The translations under genes were made by a program, and so were the position numbers. A stretch of DNA of 64,000 bases from positions 125,376 to 189,375 of IMG/VR virus record IMGVR_UViG_3300019850_000189, one strand, 5' to 3'. The notes under the pieces are model-generated. The model did not search any database. It saw only the letters and a list, made by a program, of their open reading frames with translations, and was not told where the DNA came from. Below, in pieces: positions 2,670-47,349 of this stretch. Each line of letters begins with the position of its first letter. Position 1 is the stretch's first letter. Source of the stretch: a virus.

Positions 2670-2936
2670 ATGAAAAAAGAAATAGCAAAATCATTCCTCA
2701 AAGATAACATCTTAACTATCGGATATATGACTTCAATACAAATATCGAGCAAGAATGGGCCAACCATTGGCAACGGCCGATTACCAGGTGCTGTCCAGGT
2801 TCCTAATGTATCGCCAAATTCACAAGGCGAGCGATTTAAATTAACTATCACATTAGAATGCTCTCCTGATGATCTCAAGCCTGTCTATTCTGAATTATTA
2901 CCTTATGGAAAAATACTAATATTGAAAATGGAATAA
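2670..2936 (+). CDS. hypothetical protein
   Basis: ORF track, tight packing. Confidence 0.55.
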   Translation: MKKEIAKSFLKDNILTIGYMTSIQISSKNGPTIGNGRLPGAVQVPNVSPNSQGERFKLTITLECSPDDLKPVYSELLPYGKILILKME

Positions 2937-2939
2937 ATC

Positions 2940-3626
2940 ATGCATGATATGTATAAGCTTAAACTTAATCCGCGGGATTTGGCTATTTATGATATGGCCA
3001 GAATATTTTACAATATGATGTCAAGCCATGATCCTAAATCGCATGCACAATGGGCTAATTTTTATAATGCCAGTTATCCACAAAAAGGCAGAAACTGGAA
3101 ATACTTTGAGGAACTTTATGAAGTAATTAAAAATGACAGCCATTTTAACATGAGATGGTTTGTAAATGCTCAGTTAGTTTACCTTGAAAAAGGAAAAACC
3201 ATATGGCCGGCTCAATTGCTAACCAAAAAGGCGATGAATAATTATTTTGAGTATTGCAATAACCGTCGCATAACAATTAAGGGCGACGGTACTAAAGATA
3301 TTATAGCGGCTCTTGTTCATGATAAAAAATTCATGCGAGAATGGCTTAGTGATCATCCAGAAAGCGACTACGCAGATTTCTTTGGCCGAGTGCCGGAAGG
3401 ACTGGTAATGTCAGATGGAATTTATTACGCAATTCAAGGAATGCTATCTGTATTCTTTTTATCAATATCCAAAAATTTCAACATAGTTTACTTAAACCTG
3501 GAACCGGATCTACGAGAAGAAATTGCGACAAAAGGGAGGATTTTAATGTCGCGAGATAAAGTTAGGCTTAATAAGCGGGCCCTGGAGTTAGCAAGAAAAA
3601 TATTCAAAGAGGAAGTGCTATTATGA
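2940..3626 (+). CDS. hypothetical protein
   Basis: 228-aa ORF; ATGA overlap with next ORF. Confidence 0.65.
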   Translation: MHDMYKLKLNPRDLAIYDMARIFYNMMSSHDPKSHAQWANFYNASYPQKGRNWKYFEELYEVIKNDSHFNMRWFVNAQLVYLEKGKTIWPAQLLTKKAMNNYFEYCNNRRITIKGDGTKDIIAALVHDKKFMREWLSDHPESDYADFFGRVPEGLVMSDGIYYAIQGMLSVFFLSISKNFNIVYLNLEPDLREEIATKGRILMSRDKVRLNKRALELARKIFKEEVLL

Positions 3627-3790
3627 CAATAGAATTTTTTACGTATTTGCTTGGATTGGCATTGATGCTTTATAGAGCTGAAATCATAGATTCTAAACAG
3701 ATACAGAAACTTGTAGAGGTGTGCAAGGACAACTCAGACAAATCTATAGAAGATTTATTAACGGAGTTGGAAAGTATTAATAAAAAATAA
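3623..3790 (+). CDS. small hypothetical protein (55 aa, MTIEFFTYLLGLALML...)
   Basis: read manually; below ORF-track cutoff; ATGA overlap. Confidence 0.45.
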   Translation: MTIEFFTYLLGLALMLYRAEIIDSKQIQKLVEVCKDNSDKSIEDLLTELESINKK

Positions 3791-3804
3791 TACTGAAGAA
3801 TCGT

Positions 3805-3987
3805 ATGTCAGATGTCATTAAAGAAATTGATACTGTAGTTACAAAATATGAGGTTAAACCGTCAGTAATGAAAGATATTACCCAAAATTTTGAGCATTCC
3901 TTCAAAGCCACAGAAAATATCGATAAATCCAAGCAGGAAGATATGGCAAAAATTTATGCCAGAGATGGCATCATAATAAGGGGATAA
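3805..3987 (+). CDS. hypothetical protein
   Basis: ORF track. Confidence 0.5.
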   Translation: MSDVIKEIDTVVTKYEVKPSVMKDITQNFEHSFKATENIDKSKQEDMAKIYARDGIIIRG

Positions 3988-3988
3988 A

Positions 3989-4216
3989 ATGAAAATTCAA
4001 CATTTTAATTACACAAGGATGGATGGAGAAGAATCAGAACACACTGTTATTATATTAAAAGAGGACAATGCATATATTGAAGGAATAGATTTGACAAAGC
4101 TTGCAAAACCAGAGCAGCAAAGCATTATCGCGATTCAGAAAGAATATGAGGAAGCATTATCTTCTTTTATGCCATCTTATCGCAAGTTTATTAAAGATAA
4201 TATCAAAGTCCTATAA
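3989..4216 (+). CDS. hypothetical protein
   Basis: ORF with AGGGG RBS. Confidence 0.55.
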   Translation: MKIQHFNYTRMDGEESEHTVIILKEDNAYIEGIDLTKLAKPEQQSIIAIQKEYEEALSSFMPSYRKFIKDNIKVL

Positions 4217-4232
4217 TGAATGGAGAGCCGAG

Positions 4233-5021
4233 GTGGAACTCACAGGTAAAAAACTCAATATTATAACAAGTTGTTATAATAATTTAAATTGTAAACATTG
4301 CTATGTTGATGCATATCTGCCATTGACGGATAATGTATATAACAAGAGGGAAATCGCCAGAATTTTCGATTATTTTAATTCCAAGGGTGTAAATGACGTA
4401 TCATTTATCGGTGGCGAGCCGCTAATGAATACCTTTCGTCTCATGGAAATGTTGAAAATGGGATTAAATTATTTTCAACATTTCTCCTTACTTACCAATG
4501 GCATAATGCTGGAAGAAGCGTTGCTGGATCAGTTGATAGAATTGGGTCTCGCAGAATTAAAAATTAGCCTGTTTTCATTTAATGGAGAAGAGTTCAACAG
4601 CTTGGCTGGTTTGATTAGAAAAATGTATATTCCCAAAGATATAATTGCATATGCCAACAGTAAGCTTACAACTATCCTTTATGTTCCTATTTTTAGTTCG
4701 GAGCTTGGTTATTTAAATAGTAAGGTATTTGAAGGCTTTGACGATTTTATGGCAAGCACCAATAGCAAAAATATCACATTCCTATCCACACTTCCAAATC
4801 AATTCGAAACTATGGATTTTTATAAGAATATAACTGCAGCAGGTAAATTGATTAAAGCAGAGAAGCACCTTGAGATATTTAATACAGGCAAGTATAATAT
4901 TGGATTTTTAGATATTGTCTCGTACGTCAATGAACCTGGTAGATTTTATCTATATCCAGATTTAAAAGTTAGAACAAGCCTTGCCACTCTAGACAGCATA
5001 TACGAAATTTCACAGGGATAA
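4233..5021 (+). CDS. radical SAM protein with CX5CX2C motif
   Basis: CYNNLNCKHCY, FIGGEPL, LLTNG; GTG start at 4233 after GGAG-containing RBS. Confidence 0.75.
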   Translation: MELTGKKLNIITSCYNNLNCKHCYVDAYLPLTDNVYNKREIARIFDYFNSKGVNDVSFIGGEPLMNTFRLMEMLKMGLNYFQHFSLLTNGIMLEEALLDQLIELGLAELKISLFSFNGEEFNSLAGLIRKMYIPKDIIAYANSKLTTILYVPIFSSELGYLNSKVFEGFDDFMASTNSKNITFLSTLPNQFETMDFYKNITAAGKLIKAEKHLEIFNTGKYNIGFLDIVSYVNEPGRFYLYPDLKVRTSLATLDSIYEISQG

Positions 5022-5025
5022 TAAA

Positions 5026-5214
5026 ATGCCAAAAATACCAATGCATTATGACTATAATGCATTTATGAAAGAACTTGACGAAGAAACGGCCGAGATTGTT
5101 GCCGAAATGGATGATAAAATGCACCGAAAGGGTGTCGGTAAAAGAGACCAAATTAAAGAAGAGCTTGTAAAATCAATCAGAGATCGAAACTTTAAATACA
5201 AAAATAAAAAATAG
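5026..5214 (+). CDS. hypothetical protein
   Basis: ORF track. Confidence 0.5.
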   Translation: MPKIPMHYDYNAFMKELDEETAEIVAEMDDKMHRKGVGKRDQIKEELVKSIRDRNFKYKNKK

Positions 5215-5247
5215 TTTAAATTTTGTTAATCTAGAAGCATATATAAA

Positions 5248-5646
5248 ATGAAAAGAAATTACTCAAATATAACATATGAGGAATTTGCCAGGCTGAAGTT
5301 TCCCTTCTTGGCAAAATATGAAGATGAGAATACTTTATATTATATTTACTTTGATAGCGTAATACACATATTGCCCAGCTCGGCGCTGCCGAAACGCTCG
5401 GCGGTAAATATAAGAAACAAAGTAATGGAATTTAAGACTCGATTGAAATATCATGCTTTCAAATCGTCAAATGAACTTAACATATACATCGGAGCTCCTA
5501 TAAAAGATTCAATTGGTAATATTCTTTTTTTACAGAATCTCCATATAGCAAAAACACCAAATGAATTATCCGATATGAAAGAAGGTATAATTCTTGGTTT
5601 ATTTAAATACGAAAAAATAACTTTTTTGAAATCGCGATTTGACTGA
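5248..5646 (+). CDS. hypothetical protein
   Basis: ORF preceded by CATATATA (5238). Confidence 0.55.
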   Translation: MKRNYSNITYEEFARLKFPFLAKYEDENTLYYIYFDSVIHILPSSALPKRSAVNIRNKVMEFKTRLKYHAFKSSNELNIYIGAPIKDSIGNILFLQNLHIAKTPNELSDMKEGIILGLFKYEKITFLKSRFD

Positions 5647-5666
5647 CAATTAAATTATCATTAAAA

Positions 5667-5675
5667 CATATATAG
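5667..5675 (+). promoter_or_regulatory. CATATATAG motif upstream of tubulin gene
   Basis: intergenic, ahead of AAGGAG RBS. Confidence 0.45.
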
Positions 5676-5695
5676 AATCAATAAGGAGTTAATAA

Positions 5696-6694
5696 ATGAA
5701 ACGTTTAATTCTTGGTTGTGGCCAGACAGGTTCACGCCTTGCTGAAATGTTTAAGAGTAAAAATGATGATATTATCACATTTTCAACCGCAGTAGAGGAT
5801 GCCATCGGCTTAAGTAATAATATTCAAGTTTCTGATGAAGGCTCGGGACGTAACTACAACATCGGCCTTAGACTATGGGCCGAAAAGAAGGAAGAAATTG
5901 CTAAAATTCTTGAGCCTTATGAACGTACACGTATTGTATATTTTGCCGCTTTAGGCGGTGGAAGCGGCAGCTCATCAATTAGAATTGTTCTTAATCAGTT
6001 AACACGTCAAAAAAACAAAATTTTATTTGTTGGCATTCTGCCATTCTTAGCCGAGGCAATTCCAGCAACCGCAAATGCAGTTCGGTCCATGCAGTCTCTC
6101 GTATATTATCAAGACAAATGTTCAATTATGTTATTTCCAAATGAACTAATTGGTAAATTTACAGCAAGAGACTATACGGCTATTAACGATCATATAATAG
6201 GCGCCATCAGATGCGTTACAAATCTTAATAGCGAGCTGAATGATTCCAGTTTATATACACCATTATCCATAGATTATCTTGAAGCGGATTCGATTGCTTA
6301 TGCGGGTGGTTTTGTCAATGTTTCTTTTTCAAATTTGGAGGAAGAATCACTTAAATTCATCGGTTATGGCAAGATAAATGAAGCAAAGAATATTCTTGTT
6401 GCGCGCTCTGTATACAGCAAAATAAAACAAGCAGAGGTAGATTCTGAAGCTAACAAACTAATTGAAGTTGTCAAAAAGATAAGTGGTAGAGCCCGCGGGG
6501 CAAGGATTCTTTTTGGTATTATCAGAAATAATTATGATAATATTCTATATATTACCATAGCTGCTGGTCTCAAAATAGGGCACCTGATAGATAAATATAA
6601 AAACCTAGCTATTGACAGAGTGACTAATTACAGAGCAGAAGAAATGCATGAGGATATCATAGATAAAGATGAGAATAAATTCCTTAATGTTTAA
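5696..6694 (+). CDS. tubulin/FtsZ-family GTPase (PhuZ/TubZ-like)
   Basis: N-terminal ILGCGQTGSRLA, signature ALGGGSGSS, EGSGRN, T7-loop-like SIDYLE. Confidence 0.8.
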   Translation: MKRLILGCGQTGSRLAEMFKSKNDDIITFSTAVEDAIGLSNNIQVSDEGSGRNYNIGLRLWAEKKEEIAKILEPYERTRIVYFAALGGGSGSSSIRIVLNQLTRQKNKILFVGILPFLAEAIPATANAVRSMQSLVYYQDKCSIMLFPNELIGKFTARDYTAINDHIIGAIRCVTNLNSELNDSSLYTPLSIDYLEADSIAYAGGFVNVSFSNLEEESLKFIGYGKINEAKNILVARSVYSKIKQAEVDSEANKLIEVVKKISGRARGARILFGIIRNNYDNILYITIAAGLKIGHLIDKYKNLAIDRVTNYRAEEMHEDIIDKDENKFLNV

Positions 6695-6706
6695 GGAGGC
6701 TGCATA

Positions 6707-6850
6707 ATGGCCCTAAAAGGCTTTTCAGGATATAGGCCAGGAGACGGTTCCATACCGCTGTATCAAAAAAACAATAAAAATACTTCATTGCTTGACAAAC
6801 TGAAATTTTGGAAGTGGTTCGTCAATAAAAAACAAACCAAAAATGAATGA
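6707..6850 (+). CDS. small hypothetical protein (47 aa)
   Basis: AAGGAGG RBS; read manually; overlaps 6843 start. Confidence 0.45.
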   Translation: MALKGFSGYRPGDGSIPLYQKNNKNTSLLDKLKFWKWFVNKKQTKNE

Positions 6851-41810: not shown

Positions 41811-42117
41811 TACTTCTGTAAAAAAAATAGTGGCAGCTACTCTAAAAGAAAATCAACTGCAAAAAATATCTCAAGAAAAGCGAATGCGATCGCGAAAATG
41901 GATATCATGGTTGGTATGGCTTATTCTAACAGCGGTAAGTTTATATCTTGTTAAAAGTGGCACCACTAATTTAGATATTAATCTTGTGATTAAAATGTTT
42001 GGCATAGTTACTATTATTTATATTTTGGGAAATGTATTTGAGAAATTCATTATGTTATTCGCCAGTAAACTTGCCGAAATAATATCAAAGAAAATTGAAG
42101 GTTTTATAAACTCATAA
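41803..42117 (+). CDS. 2-TM membrane protein, holin-like
   Basis: basic RSRKW followed by two TM helices. Confidence 0.45.
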   Translation: MDNTSVKKIVAATLKENQLQKISQEKRMRSRKWISWLVWLILTAVSLYLVKSGTTNLDINLVIKMFGIVTIIYILGNVFEKFIMLFASKLAEIISKKIEGFINS

Positions 42118-42126
42118 CATATATAG
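42118..42126 (+). promoter_or_regulatory. CATATATAG motif heading the radical SAM cluster
   Basis: immediately after upstream stop; AGGTG RBS follows. Confidence 0.5.
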
Positions 42127-42133
42127 GTGTGAA

Positions 42134-42580
42134 ATGGGATATATATGGACAAATATAACTGCCGGCGCGACTAGGATAAAAGGCCAACATTTGCAAGAAG
42201 TTGTAGATAATGTTAAGAACGCGGAAACGCAACTTGAACTAACCGCGCCAGAAAAGCACACCTGGTCTGCCGGTATGGATTCATTCAATAAGATTCCTAT
42301 ATTACATGATGAGTGGCAGGAGCTTAGAGATGCTACCGATAATTTAGATGATAAAAATTATTGTAGAACTCATGATGTCACACATTATGTTGGCTACGAT
42401 GCCGATCTGCATAGTACATATTGTCCAACGCATTATCCAGATTATTGTAATGACCTGCATATAGGTCATCACGGCTCGCATTTAATATATTATTTTAGTG
42501 GCTATAATTATGATTACCATGGAACACACAAAACTGCATACTACACTAGCAAGGATTCTGTAGTACATCATGGTCACTAA
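42134..42580 (+). CDS. tetrapeptide-periodic His/Tyr/Cys-rich protein 1 (putative modification substrate)
   Basis: duplicated W...I..H..E...D leader, then 18 in-register 4-mers (CRTH DVTH YVGY...). Confidence 0.7.
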   Translation: MGYIWTNITAGATRIKGQHLQEVVDNVKNAETQLELTAPEKHTWSAGMDSFNKIPILHDEWQELRDATDNLDDKNYCRTHDVTHYVGYDADLHSTYCPTHYPDYCNDLHIGHHGSHLIYYFSGYNYDYHGTHKTAYYTSKDSVVHHGH

Positions 42581-42609
42581 ACTATTGTGTGAAGCAGAAG
42601 AGGGAATAA

Positions 42610-42924
42610 ATGGCATTTTCTTGGGTGGAAGATATAAGTAGCGGCGCTTTAATCACTAAAGCGGCTATAGATGAGATCAGGAGTAATGTTGATTCTGTTG
42701 TTGATAACTTATCATCATGTTTTACGCATTACGCTACTTATGATGTTGATTTACATTCCGGGCATGATGGTGCACTATACACTACCTACCAAAATAATTT
42801 GTATACGGGCCTTGATAACGCTTTGTATTCGTATTGCAACGCAAATTACCCAGGCTATCATAATGGTTTAGATTCAACATATAAAGCTTCACATTATACC
42901 TCGTTTTATGCCGATCATTTGTAA
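42610..42924 (+). CDS. tetrapeptide-periodic His/Tyr-rich protein 2 (putative modification substrate)
   Basis: MAFSW..I..G..I....I.EIR..VD leader, then CFTH YATY DVDL HSGH... Confidence 0.7.
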   Translation: MAFSWVEDISSGALITKAAIDEIRSNVDSVVDNLSSCFTHYATYDVDLHSGHDGALYTTYQNNLYTGLDNALYSYCNANYPGYHNGLDSTYKASHYTSFYADHL

Positions 42925-42962
42925 TTGAATATAATGGAGGATTTTTGTACCAATAACTAACA

Positions 42963-44303
42963 ATGAATACTAAAACACTCACTTTGTATGTATCTGACAT
43001 TTGTAATTTAAAGTGCAAATATTGTTTGTGGCCTAAATTCCCACAAATAATGCAACGTGAAAATAAAGACGTCAGATCTTGGATTAGCAGCGGCCGCATG
43101 GCTAATGCCATACAACAGTTCTCATCTAAAAAAAGCTTAGAATTTTTAAGTTTATGGGGCGGCGAACCGACACTAAATTTTGATTTGCTTGCTCCAGAAC
43201 TCGCTAAAATTGCCGACAAATATCCAAATTTATCTGCAATTAGTTTTTCTACAAACTTGAGTACCACTCTCATAGTAAATTACATTATCGATTTTATAAC
43301 ACACATCAATATTATACGCCCTATTAAATTCGACATACAGATATCAATAGATGGCCCTAGTTTTATAAATGATATAAATCGACGCGGAGCTTCTGCCGCG
43401 AAAATTGTTGATAACATAAAATATTTTACTAATAAACTCATAGATAAAAATCTGATTGATAATGTAACATTACATACTAAGTCAACTCTTACTATTGATA
43501 ATATTGTTACACTTCTCAAATATGACGACAAATTTTTCGAGTTTTTCGAGTTTTTCGATCGAGAAAGCGCAAAATGTGGCAAAGTATTTTACACGATGCC
43601 TTCATATGTTTTTCCTGGGCAATATACGCAGAGGCAAGGTGAGATATACGCATTATTCTTATACAAACTTCTTAACTTTGATCTAAATTTGAAATATATA
43701 ACTTCTCCTATAGAAGATGATTTTGTTGTTCGCGCGAAAATGTTGCTGCAAGCATTTGATCGCATAAGACATCGCAGATTTATGGGCGAGTTTTATTCTC
43801 AAGCACATTGTTCTGCTGGTCGCGAGGGTTTTGCCATAGACAAAGATGATCAATTGCATATATGTCATGGCACATTCTTCACTAATGAAGATGTTTTACA
43901 ACAAACAAGTTATAACAAAAATTTCTTCGAAGAAGAAGTTGGTTTTTCTCATGATAAGTTTAATAGTTTTGTCAGGGATGTCGGAGTGATTGATGGTAAT
44001 AATGATTTAAAGCGGTTAAGATTCCAATATTGTAACAGAGCGATACATGATAATTTCGCTTTCATATTGTCCTATAACGAAGCCATGGCTCGTGAGCTGG
44101 TCCTTAGCGGCCAATTATCTAAGACATATATAAACGATGATATAAGAAGTTTACTCTGTGTTTTTGCAGCTTTTAAGAATGGATGTTTAACAGATAATTT
44201 ATGGCAGAATGGAAATATGGCCATATCCAATTCGTCAATATTAAAACTTCTTGGCAATGGCGCTTTCGAATTAATAATGAATTATTTAAAGGATATGCAG
44301 TGA
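42963..44303 (+). CDS. radical SAM protein with partial SPASM/Twitch domain
   Basis: ICNLKCKYC, LWGGEPTL, ISIDGP...ND..R, HCSAG.....ID.D.....CHG. Confidence 0.9.
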   Translation: MNTKTLTLYVSDICNLKCKYCLWPKFPQIMQRENKDVRSWISSGRMANAIQQFSSKKSLEFLSLWGGEPTLNFDLLAPELAKIADKYPNLSAISFSTNLSTTLIVNYIIDFITHINIIRPIKFDIQISIDGPSFINDINRRGASAAKIVDNIKYFTNKLIDKNLIDNVTLHTKSTLTIDNIVTLLKYDDKFFEFFEFFDRESAKCGKVFYTMPSYVFPGQYTQRQGEIYALFLYKLLNFDLNLKYITSPIEDDFVVRAKMLLQAFDRIRHRRFMGEFYSQAHCSAGREGFAIDKDDQLHICHGTFFTNEDVLQQTSYNKNFFEEEVGFSHDKFNSFVRDVGVIDGNNDLKRLRFQYCNRAIHDNFAFILSYNEAMARELVLSGQLSKTYINDDIRSLLCVFAAFKNGCLTDNLWQNGNMAISNSSILKLLGNGAFELIMNYLKDMQ

Positions 44304-45652
44304 CGTTTAAAGCAGAAGAAAAACAACTTTATTTGGACTTTATCGAAAGATATTACTTTGTTCACTGGAGAATGGATCCGCCATACAAATCAGAATATAA
44401 TACTTCCGTGGAATTATTCTTAACTCCTGACTGCGATTTGCAGTGCAAATATTGTTACCTCAATAAATTTGGAGATAAACTATATAGTAAAAATATTCGC
44501 GATTTGAAACAAGTGGTTGAAAATACTCAATTATTATTTGATTATTTCACCAATAATAAACTTTTTCCCAATACAATAGAAATTTTCGCCGGCACCATTC
44601 CAATCTCCGCATATGAAGAAATTTTTGATATAATATATAAGTATGTGAATAGCGCACCAATGCAAAAAGAATTCAATATTATTATTCCAACGAATGCTCT
44701 ATTTGTGCGTGATGAACGCAAAATAAAAATGCTTATTGATTGGACAAAAAAATTTTCAAATATCAATTCTACAATGCACATTTCATATTCATTCGATGGC
44801 AAATATGCAGATCCATTATCCAGACCGGCAAAAAATAAATATTTCAAATATGATGATGAGTTTTATGAGCGAATAAAAGATTTTGCTAGAATAGTGCGGC
44901 CTGGTTTTCATCCAATGATATCTCCGGAAAACATTCATGTATGGCCCCAGAATTTTGATTGGTTTCTAAAATATATAGGTGATACCTACAACTGTGATGA
45001 AAAAGAAGCATTAAATAGCTTATATCTGCTCGAAGTAAGAAATCCAAATTGGCAGGAAAAAGAATTATTACATTTGGCCGACTTTAATTATTATATGACA
45101 AAAAGAATTTTTGATATATATGATGGCAGTCCATCACAATTTGTTAATAAATTTCTCAGAACCACGGCCCTTAATTGGTATACAAATTTTGTTGGTACGA
45201 TAGGTAGAGGCATTGGTTGTTCTATTCAATCCGGGATGTATATCAGGATGGGAGATCTGAGTATTGTACCATGCCACAGAACATCATGGCCGGATTACGA
45301 GAGTGGCCGATTTACCGTAGAAAATAATCAAATAGTCGGATTGGAGCCTGTAAACCCATGGACTCATCTGGCTATAGCCTCATTCAAAGCCGAAAATGGA
45401 TTTGTTTGTTCCCACTGTCCTATAAATTCACTTTGCAGTTTTTATTGTCTGGGCGCAAATTTAGAATTTAACAGAAATTTATTTGTTCCGATACCGAGTG
45501 TATGTAGAATGGAGTATTACAAAATTAAAAGTGTAATCAATAGCTTTAAGCTTTTGGGAATATGGCCGGCATATTATAGATATTTAGAATCCAAAGATAC
45601 AGGTATGCCCAGTTTGTCTAAGCTGAGACAAGCCGAAGCACTAATCATTTAG
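44300..45652 (+). CDS. radical SAM/SPASM protein
   Basis: DCDLQCKYCY, SFDG, GCSI......G.L..VPCHR, CSHCPINSLC...CLG.N...C; GTG start overlapping upstream TGA. Confidence 0.9.
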   Translation: MTFKAEEKQLYLDFIERYYFVHWRMDPPYKSEYNTSVELFLTPDCDLQCKYCYLNKFGDKLYSKNIRDLKQVVENTQLLFDYFTNNKLFPNTIEIFAGTIPISAYEEIFDIIYKYVNSAPMQKEFNIIIPTNALFVRDERKIKMLIDWTKKFSNINSTMHISYSFDGKYADPLSRPAKNKYFKYDDEFYERIKDFARIVRPGFHPMISPENIHVWPQNFDWFLKYIGDTYNCDEKEALNSLYLLEVRNPNWQEKELLHLADFNYYMTKRIFDIYDGSPSQFVNKFLRTTALNWYTNFVGTIGRGIGCSIQSGMYIRMGDLSIVPCHRTSWPDYESGRFTVENNQIVGLEPVNPWTHLAIASFKAENGFVCSHCPINSLCSFYCLGANLEFNRNLFVPIPSVCRMEYYKIKSVINSFKLLGIWPAYYRYLESKDTGMPSLSKLRQAEALII

Positions 45653-45663
45653 AGGGGTATAAA

Positions 45664-46245
45664 ATGACCTATGAAGAAGTAAAACAAGTTTTAAAAGGTA
45701 ATATTTCAAAATATGTAAATTCTTTATTTCCAGATCTATCTATCAATTTTAAGGCTTTGATTGATTATTATATGAATGATCTCGAAAAGCTCATGGATGA
45801 TAAGAAAGTTGATGATATTACAGAACAACTCACAAATGATACTATCACTGTGGCATCTAGAATACGCCATGTACTGATCATGGAAAATATCAGTAAAGCA
45901 GAAATGGACTTTATCACATCTCTCAACTATTTAATATGGAATTGGGCCAAAGCCACCAATACAGAGCAAGCTTTAGCGATTTGTGCACAGAATGACATTC
46001 TGGTAGAAACACAATTCGACCTGAAACGCAACATAACTATTATGCGTCAGTTGGTAGTTGAGGCCGAAAGGATTCTCGCATTTAAACCCAAAGATATGGT
46101 TTTTTCAGGCATGTATTTGGAAAAAATAGATAAATATTTTGAATTTATGAAGAAAAACAAATTAGATACATATGGCTCATTGAATCCGGATGCATTAAAA
46201 CAATTTGAAAAGGAAAAAAATAATGAAAATGATTCTAAAAAATAA
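45664..46245 (+). CDS. helical accessory protein of radical SAM cluster
   Basis: GAGGGG RBS, co-oriented. Confidence 0.6.
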   Translation: MTYEEVKQVLKGNISKYVNSLFPDLSINFKALIDYYMNDLEKLMDDKKVDDITEQLTNDTITVASRIRHVLIMENISKAEMDFITSLNYLIWNWAKATNTEQALAICAQNDILVETQFDLKRNITIMRQLVVEAERILAFKPKDMVFSGMYLEKIDKYFEFMKKNKLDTYGSLNPDALKQFEKEKNNENDSKK

Positions 46246-46384
46246 AAATGGTGAATCTTTTGAACTGGCAATTCCAGATCAAGAATTAATATCCGCTTCT
46301 CAATATCTAGATACTAGCTTGAAGGCAAATGTCGCAAGAATATCGATAGTGTTGGATACACTAAGTCTGTTGCGTAATCCCTAA
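46223..46384 (+). CDS. small protein (53 aa, MKMILKNKNGESFEL...)
   Basis: read manually; AAGGA RBS; bridges 45664 ORF and the GT. Confidence 0.45.
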   Translation: MKMILKNKNGESFELAIPDQELISASQYLDTSLKANVARISIVLDTLSLLRNP

Positions 46385-46386
46385 AA

Positions 46387-47349
46387 ATGAAAATTTTATG
46401 CCTTTTCTATGATGGTGGATATGGTGTAACTAGAGCATCCAATTTGATTTTCAATGCCATTAAGAATGAATACAAAGATACCATAAAACATCTCTCGAAC
46501 ATCAACAATACTTATGTCATATATGACATAATTAAAAATCATAACCCGGATGTTATTGTCACACAGGACTATTTTTCCTGGATTATGAATGCCATCAGCT
46601 GTTACAAAATCGATCACCACGTAAAATCTATTTTATATTCTCTATATATAGATGATATCATCCCCGATGGTCTTGAAACTTTTGACGGTTTTTTTGTTCC
46701 TGAAAATAACTCCATGAAATATTCGAGAAATTGCGTGGCGGCCGCCAGCAGTGTATTCTATTTACCATTGGAGCCTAATTTCAGATATGATATAGAATGG
46801 TCCAAGAGAGAAAACAATTTTATTTATGCCGGCCGAATAGACAGAACGAAACTGAATCTGAAAATATTATCATTACTCGATAAACATCACCAAACGCTGC
46901 ACGTATATGGTGCAATAACTGACCAAAAACATTTTTCTAAGTGCCGCCGTTTTAATTCTTTCAAGTATATGGGTGTGGCCACAACGAATATGATGCCATC
47001 CATTTTTAATAAATACAAGTTTCACATACTATACTCCGAAACTGATTGCTTTTCAATTAGCAGTTTAGAAGCGGCCGCCTGTGGAACAATTCCGATTACT
47101 ATTGGGAGAATACTTAAATGGATGAAAGATTACAGTTTTCAATTTAGCAACATACATGAATTCAGCATCATGCAGCCGGCCTTGCTTATACACGATTTGA
47201 CCAAGTTTTCTATAAATATAAGCAACAAAATAGACAGCAACTATAGAGTTGCGCCCTTTATTGAACAATTCGGTAGAGCGCTTAAGAACCCTGTAAAAAA
47301 CATAAAACCTGTGATAAAAAGTAATTTTATTTCTCATCCACAAAGATAA
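46387..47349 (+). CDS. GT-B glycosyltransferase (GT4-like)
   Basis: NPDVIVT, FIYAGRI...K, YSETDCFSISSLEAAACGTIPI. Confidence 0.8.
   Translation: MKILCLFYDGGYGVTRASNLIFNAIKNEYKDTIKHLSNINNTYVIYDIIKNHNPDVIVTQDYFSWIMNAISCYKIDHHVKSILYSLYIDDIIPDGLETFDGFFVPENNSMKYSRNCVAAASSVFYLPLEPNFRYDIEWSKRENNFIYAGRIDRTKLNLKILSLLDKHHQTLHVYGAITDQKHFSKCRRFNSFKYMGVATTNMMPSIFNKYKFHILYSETDCFSISSLEAAACGTIPITIGRILKWMKDYSFQFSNIHEFSIMQPALLIHDLTKFSINISNKIDSNYRVAPFIEQFGRALKNPVKNIKPVIKSNFISHPQR

Follow-up and report, generated by a model that had tools for sequence, protein, structure and literature searches.

Cys-poor tetrad-repeat proteins encoded beside a conserved radical SAM enzyme pair in a T4-like phage and its metagenomic relatives

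Radical SAM peptide chemistry is known, as far as we are aware, from bacterial natural products and not from virus particles. The nearest curated entity to the locus described here is the CXXX-repeat system (TIGR04115/TIGR04119, PF27846), which was defined in silico and in which a target protein with Cys at every fourth residue is encoded next to a radical SAM/SPASM maturase. Ranthipeptides and sactipeptides (PapB/PapA freyrasin and CteB/SCIFF) carry thioethers formed on Cys; in ranthipeptides a Cys-x3-Asp/Glu motif is repeated in the core, and CteB has an auxiliary cluster with an open site for the substrate thiol. Triceptides (ChlB, YhhB, XyeB, GrrM) and the His-Xaa-Ser system (HxsA-D) have short His/Tyr-rich repeat arrays modified by SPASM-type radical SAM enzymes, two of which are paired in the Hxs system. 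Short-period repeats are also found in tail proteins of phage T4, where the gp5 triple beta-helix is an 8-residue repeat and the gp37 needle is reportedly lined with His (His-x-His iron sites). A full-text literature search found no description of the phage modules reported below and no chemistry for either their Cys-poor or their Cys-repeat form; in a cyanophage paper a radical SAM maturase is merely listed as an 'antibiotic synthesis gene' (PMC12801897).

The stretch of DNA analysed here (the window, 64,000 nucleotides) is the final 64 kb of a 189-kb viral genome (IMG/VR record IMGVR_UViG_3300019850_000189, positions 125,376 to 189,375). Its gp23-type capsid protein shares only 35% identity with the nearest record, which places the virus as a deep-branching T4-like phage. 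The window contains a conserved and apparently undescribed phage module made up of two repeat proteins (A1 and A2), two radical SAM enzymes and an accessory protein (D), in the order A1, A2, enzyme 1, enzyme 2, D. The repeat proteins and their parts, recognized by translation and periodicity unless stated otherwise, are the following:

42134..42580, + strand: long repeat protein A1, 148 aa
Residues 1-76 (42134-42361), + strand: folded leader domain of A1, as modelled by AlphaFold2
42362-42364, + strand: junction Cys77 of A1
42362-42577, + strand: core of A1, 18 tetrads
42610..42924, + strand: short repeat protein A2, 104 aa (also by leader HMM)
Residues 1-36: single leader of A2, by leader HMM
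42718-42720, + strand: junction Cys37 of A2
42718-42921, + strand: core of A2, 17 tetrads and one 3-residue slip (translation and register model)

In both proteins a four-residue register begins at a Cys behind the leader. The first-pass annotation, made from the letters of the window, had parsed the two ORFs into tetrads, and this parse matches the translations exactly, the single 3-residue slip of A2 included. It had also named shuffled compositions as a test of the periodicity, and against these the period is significant in both cores. The autocorrelation of the residue class H/Y/L in both cores gives z = +2.9, +4.8 and +3.0 at lags 4, 8 and 12 and z of -3.2 to -4.2 at lags 2 and 6, and a phase-specific composition test at period 4 gives z = +7.2 for A1 and +3.2 for A2 with the A2 slip uncorrected. 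As lag 8 exceeds lag 4, the window clade also has an octad, in which an aromatic tetrad alternates with a D-x-x-L tetrad. The register is not a DNA repeat, since Tandem Repeats Finder (score 30) finds none over 42100-42950, in agreement with the earlier claim that no tandem repeat exists at the DNA level. The sole near homologue of A2 (P0002, 87% identity) keeps the register and has the slip at the identical place. Structural constraint alone could hold such a register.

The leader had been noted twice in A1 and once in A2, and a leader HMM matches accordingly. In A1 it recognizes residues 1-37 (i-E 2.4e-13) and residues 58-77 (i-E 0.23), the second copy being partial so that A1 holds about one and a half leaders, while A2 gives one match (i-E 1.9e-18); the double match recurs in the long proteins encoded elsewhere, with i-E values reaching 7.7e-6. 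In an AlphaFold2 monomer model built on 42 aligned sequences, residues 1-77 of A1 have a pLDDT of 92-97, and as modelled the long-form leader is a confidently folded domain of about 77 residues and not a short peptide tag. The core is drawn as helix in the same model, at low confidence (pLDDT 45-63) and with no beta structure. Two proposals had been made for this core, a beta-solenoid carrying His/Tyr ladders and an array of repeated cross-link sites. The solenoid or metal ladder finds no support in the monomer model, whose core has no beta structure, or in the His/Tyr richness, which is confined to one clade, though such a fold is possible in a trimeric fibre; an array of cross-link or modification sites fits the operon context. 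Comparison of the A1 model with PDB, BFVD and VIA wide gave generic helical matches only.

The repeat proteins belong to a family that is spread across phages. An exhaustive HMMER search with A1 returned 40 representatives, 38 of which share one architecture, in which a leader helix is followed by a linker that contains a conserved Trp, by a further helix with D-x-x-D-D-x-N-Y-C at its end, and by the repeat. P0064 and P0068, long proteins among the 40 matches, proved to be unrelated repeat proteins and were rejected as spurious. In 42 long-protein sequences W5, D69 and C77 are invariant. The register is kept by the homologues, whose loss of it would have spoken against the period: across 56 cores the period-4 z has a mean of 9.2, and the period-3 z a mean of -0.15; 48 of the 56 exceed a period-4 z of 3, and the best period is 4 or 8 in all except one (55/56). 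A cyclic 4-state model, fitted to the 56 homologous cores from the junction Cys onward (4,657 residues), needs only 33 slips and yields 1,131 clean tetrads. By tetrad position, the main residues in the 56 cores are as follows:

Tetrad position 1: D 23%, N 19%, Y 16%, C 9%, H 8%
Tetrad position 2: S 27%, A 14%, T 14%, G 13%
Tetrad position 3: T 28%, G 21%, S 20%
Tetrad position 4: Y 22%, H 22%, V 12%, D 11%

Individual tetrads vary widely, none being seen more than 11 times in 1,131, and therefore the trait that is conserved is which class of residue stands at a given position; at position 1, about 86% of the residues bear S, O or N. Richness in His and Tyr is limited to the window clade, and relatives use Asp, Asn, Val, Ser and Thr at the same positions; several cores (L005, L006 and L008) are almost without aromatic residues. 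Within one phage the core compositions of A1 and A2 are correlated (r 0.84, against 0.68 between phages), a value reached by none of 10,000 permutations. Core lengths range from about 30 to 170 residues.

Cys is rare in these cores and tightly placed. Core Cys falls at tetrad position 1 in 108 of 109 cases, and the junction context Y-C-x-T/S/G-H is repeated around internal Cys. Asp or Asn stands at +4 of the junction Cys in 32 of 56 cores. Among 76 family members the junction Cys is present in 73; 33 have just one Cys, one is without any, and in two it is the junction Cys that is missing, yet all of these keep the tetrads and both enzymes. PHROGs, Pfam (in a copy without PF27846) and NCBIfam (at E <= 0.1) gave no family for A1 or A2. 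A Pfam-detectable Peptidase_S74 domain is found in none of the 76 members, both window proteins included; one Cys-poor member, P0065, ends in the first 12 residues of the S74 motif, the only one of the 76 to do so. All relatives of the module come from metagenomes: 50,697 records of cultured phages gave no match to the module by megablast or to enzyme 1 and A1 by tblastn, and among 185,579 species genomes there was a single match, to a phage contig that had been binned into an Omnitrophota MAG. A Cys-repeat protein used as query against the cultured phages also gave no match, for which the low-complexity filter is the probable cause.

Downstream of the repeat proteins the window encodes the remaining genes:

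42963..44303, + strand: radical SAM enzyme 1, 446 aa (Pfam Radical_SAM, 4.6e-10)
44300..45652, + strand: radical SAM enzyme 2, from a probable GTG start at 44300 (longest ORF from 44201, 483 aa)
45664..46245, + strand: accessory protein D, 193 aa, found 3' of enzyme 2 in 8/8 loci anchored on the radical SAM gene
46387..47349, + strand: GT4-like glycosyltransferase, 320 aa (weak Pfam Glycos_transf_1 match, 1.5e-3)

Enzyme 1 has its CxxxCxxC motif at residues 14/18/21, with no N-terminal extension, and the three further Cys at 283, 301 and 408, kept in 9/9 orthologues, suggest one partial (twitch-like) auxiliary cluster. The probable GTG start of enzyme 2 overlaps the stop of enzyme 1; in the numbering of the 483-aa ORF its CxxxCxxC lies at 78/82/85 and seven SPASM Cys lie at 340, 358, 403, 406, 412, 416 and 435. 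Both enzymes keep the CxxxCxxC and the auxiliary-cluster Cys in 9/9 orthologues at 27-38% identity. Their family matches are to peptide maturases throughout, none of them near its cut-off. PapB is the best NCBIfam match of both, at 66.5 bits for enzyme 1 and 40.6 bits for enzyme 2 against a cut-off of 340, and the alignment of enzyme 2 to the PapB model covers positions 3-326 of 330 (E 1.7e-10) at a score far below that cut-off. The nearest solved structures to enzyme 1 are CteB (5wgg, 4e-12) and ChlB (9gm3, 2e-10). A third radical SAM gene lies in the window 38 kb upstream of the module, at 4101-5021 (+), with a 306-aa product that matches Pfam Radical_SAM at 2.1e-14 and phrog_1802.

Protein D has orthologues in the family that are helical and of about 170 aa. 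It is modelled by AlphaFold2 (pLDDT 80) as an all-helical bundle of seven helices, which led to the rejection of a winged-helix RiPP recognition element as its identity, and it ends in a motif of the type P-x-A-x-E-L-S-x-x-Y-L. No family for D was found in PHROGs, Pfam or NCBIfam, and its model gives only generic helical matches in PDB. The GT4-like protein has weak GT-B matches in PDB and is an optional module member, missing from most loci; orthologues could be aligned from L007, L009, L010 and L050, of which that of L007 matches Glycos_transf_1 at 1.8e-8, and a similar-looking but truncated ORF is present in L052. The gap between D and the GT4-like gene (46245-46387) may hold an ORF of about 50 aa, as an earlier reader noted.

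Repeat proteins and enzymes are linked in both directions in about 17 viral loci, and the linkage is kept in every related locus examined. Each of the loci anchored on enzyme 1 (L003-L010) has two repeat proteins, both enzymes and D, and 7/8 have them in the order of the window. The exception is L004 (1514-3853 and 8486-9437), where the repeat proteins follow the enzymes and D, and a 779-aa HNH/homing endonuclease is encoded upstream; this arrangement may be a rearrangement by a mobile element. A second set, anchored on the repeat proteins, was found independently (L043-L052, with L048 the same contig as L003 and L049 cut short), and all of those that extend far enough have the same gene order (8/8), with the enzymes rearranged in L050; D lies downstream of enzyme 2 in all eight that reach past enzyme 2. 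L050 encodes three repeat proteins (137-859, 5310-5984 and 6001-6771), has another enzyme order with the GT4-like gene between, and has Ile instead of the junction Cys in its two short-type proteins. One sub-branch has, directly ahead of the long repeat protein, a conserved gene whose product of 353-401 aa matches no family (L048, the same as L003, at 4909-5994; L044 at 4900-5997; L046 at 4939-6000; L043 at 4788-5993), and this product could belong to the module as well. Across the about 17 loci, neither a protease nor an exporter or immunity gene was recognised within the module.

Most of these loci sit within tail or tail-fibre gene blocks. In relatives the module lies 3' of genes for a tape measure protein, tail proteins and a J-like fibre and of a small ORF with homology to tail-fibre C-termini, and in some relatives it is followed by DUF2341 fibre-like proteins or lysis genes. 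In L009 a 594-aa protein (2745-4529) has a Laminin_G_3 (concanavalin-like lectin) domain and a C-terminus made of a leader-like segment and a tetrad core; immediately 3' of its gene come those for an ordinary short repeat protein and the enzyme pair. The window itself is different, and this counts against a tail-associated reading, for the module is surrounded there by replication-type and unknown genes, with no recognisable tail genes adjoining and with no annotation obtainable for genes around it.

The module of the window is preceded by a short sequence that is shared with other operons:

42118..42126, + strand: promoter-like motif CATATATAG, 8 bases 5' of the start codon of the first gene (A1)
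467, 5667, 7777, 18361, 42118, 47842 and 62821, + strand: sites of CATATATAG in the window, with four more elsewhere in the genome and an ORF start just 3' of them

Exact copies of the motif stand 10-45 bases 5' of 11 + strand ORFs in the 189-kb genome, and it is probably a middle or late promoter element of this phage. The ORFs behind it encode SSB, a PhuZ-like protein, Hsp20, MazG, the repeat-protein operon, an exonuclease and others. Since SSB, Hsp20, MazG and exonuclease genes carry it too, the motif is not specific to structural genes, and it was rejected as a guide to expression timing for the same reason; its presence before SSB and exonuclease genes counts against a structural reading of the repeat proteins.

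More distant loci (L011-L041) encode Cys-repeat proteins beside radical SAM genes. The leader profile is homologous to the helical domain of these Cys-repeat phage proteins (hhalign 95.3%, E 2.4e-8, 64 columns). Many of them carry the tail-fibre chaperone domain Peptidase_S74 at their C-terminus, in some as part of the same ORF and in others divided between it and the one that follows. In the split cases (L035, 4160-4675 and 4693-4953; L030, 6055-6666 and 6678-6959) the first ~12 residues of the domain (S-D-x-R-L-K-x-x-I-x-Y-L) stand at the end of the Cys-repeat ORF, and the following ORF encodes profile positions 16-56; the split could be real, could mark a recoding site or could be an artefact of sequencing. 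One radical SAM protein of the Cys-repeat loci matches the enzyme 1 profile specifically (1e-16 to 1e-25) and another prefers the enzyme 2 profile (for example 1e-19 versus 2e-10), so the enzyme pair is common to both forms of the module. With a homologous leader domain and a shared enzyme pair, the window module is thus a Cys-poor sister branch of the Cys-repeat fibre group.

The reading preferred here, at a probability of roughly 0.6, is that A1 and A2 would be the substrate proteins of a dedicated phage radical SAM pair, that they would be modified by these enzymes, and that the product is probably tail-associated. Each substrate would consist of a folded N-terminal recognition or assembly domain, the nearly invariant junction Cys and a C-terminal tetrad array. 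The tetrad spacing would be under strong selection, and we infer that the enzyme pair may act repeatedly along the array, modifying one unit per tetrad or octad. The product would remain a protein, most likely of the tail or tail-fibre apparatus, and would not be a cleaved and exported peptide. As to the chemistry, the side chain at position 1 (through S, O or N) might, speculatively, form a bond to a neighbouring carbon that loss of a hydrogen has activated, or the change might be one that needs no thiol, for instance epimerisation or the coupling of two carbons. The chemistry could not be on thiols alone, because position 1, which is Cys in the sister modules, is here mostly Asp, Asn, Tyr or His. 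A narrower form of this proposal, in which each tetrad of a tail-associated protein would receive from the pair one thiol-independent covalent staple (C-O, C-N or C-C), so that a ladder is formed, is distinctly doubtful; if true, it would mean that Asp, Asn, Tyr and His stand where sister modules have Cys, and that a virion part is hardened or patterned enzymatically by a radical SAM chemistry not yet described.

An alternative that is possible, if unlikely, is that only Cys would be modified in the manner of sactipeptides and ranthipeptides, with one thioether at the junction and at most four others, the tetrads being an unmodified structural repeat such as a trimeric beta-helix or a fibre strand, which could be lined with metal-binding His, Asp, Tyr and Cys as in T4 gp37. 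The invariance of the junction Cys in the 42 long proteins and its presence in 73 of 76 members point this way, as does the Asp/Asn at +4, which is like the PapB C-x-x-x-D motif. The best family matches of both enzymes are to thioether formers (PapB, CcpM, the SCIFF maturase and CteB), and the three auxiliary Cys of enzyme 1 would leave an open cluster site for a substrate thiol. For the unmodified repeat it can be added that the residues at position 1 are all good metal ligands and that the octad of the window clade is reminiscent of the T4 gp5 triple beta-helix with its repeat of 8 residues. However, AlphaFold2 draws the core without beta structure, in what is a monomer model only, and both enzymes are retained with the one member that has no Cys and with the two that lack the junction Cys. 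Chemistry on thiols only would leave most of the array unused, because 33 of 76 members have a single Cys in addition to these three exceptions, and two conserved enzymes and a helper would be much machinery for a single bond.

It is also conceivable, though quite improbable, that the module encodes a classical RiPP, whose leader would be bound by the enzymes and cut off and whose modified core would be set free as a bioactive peptide, acting, for instance, on the host or against rival bacteria or phages. The leader-core layout directly upstream of radical SAM enzymes of the peptide-maturase type is consistent with such a peptide, as are the strongly conserved junction motif and the position of the window module outside a recognisable structural block. 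Yet none of the about 17 loci shows the protease, exporter or immunity gene of such a pathway, most of them lie within tail modules, and the long-form leader is a folded 77-residue domain homologous to a domain of tail-fibre-type proteins. The cores, moreover, are about 30 to 170 residues long, and in L009 the unit is the C-terminus of the 594-aa lectin-domain protein. A scaffold for glycosylation at Ser/Thr of positions 2-3 or at an Asn-x-Ser/Thr sequon, with the radical SAM enzymes in a secondary role, is highly improbable, for although a GT4-like gene lies 3' of the module here and is found in L007, L009, L010 and L050 (and as the truncated ORF of L052), positions 2-3 are rich in Ser/Thr and Asn is common at position 1, that gene is missing from most loci where both radical SAM enzymes are always there, and Asn at position 1 shows no association with Ser/Thr at position 3.

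If A1 and A2 are modified to become tail parts, phages would have a new route by which to build or diversify host-recognition structures. The Cys-poor branch is informative in that tetrad spacing, leader domain and both enzymes are kept while Asp, Asn, Tyr and His replace Cys; it can show what the spacing is for, and whether thioethers are all that the enzymes make, any other product being new enzyme chemistry. As the proteins are small and the enzymes few, the question is directly testable.

Compared with known systems, the T4 gp37 and gp5 fibres resemble the proposed product in having short-period repeats in a tail protein and His at fixed positions, and the window clade adds its octad; no radical SAM enzymes are needed there, and no similarity of sequence or fold was found in PDB, BFVD or VIA wide. 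Triceptides and the His-Xaa-Ser system share the short His/Tyr-rich arrays modified by SPASM-type radical SAM enzymes; the two paired Hxs enzymes are matched by the pair of the window module, and ChlB, a triceptide maturase, is the second nearest solved structure of enzyme 1. The period is 4 here and not 3, however, and no aromatic position is conserved family-wide, position 1 being 42% Asp/Asn and position 4 23% Val/Asp across the family, with His/Tyr at positions 1 and 4 in the window phage. The YhhB, GrrM, FxsB and AmcB models score 14.6-34 bits against cut-offs of 310-445, and the HxsB model 39.4 and 15.8 bits against 370.

To the ranthipeptides and sactipeptides the module is related through PapB, the best family match, and CteB, the nearest structure, and the junction C-x-x-x-D/N resembles the PapB motif. 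The ranthipeptide motif is repeated in the core, whereas the window family usually has the junction Cys only; its substrates are also much larger, with a folded leader, no protease or exporter, and enzyme scores far below the cut-offs.

The CXXX-repeat system, to which the phage Cys-repeat fibre proteins of L011-L041 correspond, remains the closest. The window family differs from it in that Cys makes up 9% of position 1, junction included, and so is not found at every fourth residue although period 4 is kept, and in that enzymes 1 and 2 score 22.7 and 16.5 bits with TIGR04115, below its cut-off of 350 bits. Relative to the Cys-repeat loci, it also has no Pfam-detectable S74 domain and a different helper protein, D showing no similarity to the small helper proteins of those loci (hhalign probability 0.3%). 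In the protein atlas, viral clusters bearing PF27846 are a weak lead for A1 (score 0.81, TM 0.59). What the window module has in common with the CXXX-repeat system is a target gene that adjoins a radical SAM/SPASM maturase, and with the Cys-repeat fibre proteins its family shares a helical domain that precedes the repeat, a Cys right after the helix, an enzyme 1-like and enzyme 2-like pair in tail-fibre neighbourhoods and, as in L037 and L040 where Cys recurs at every fourth residue, the same spacing.
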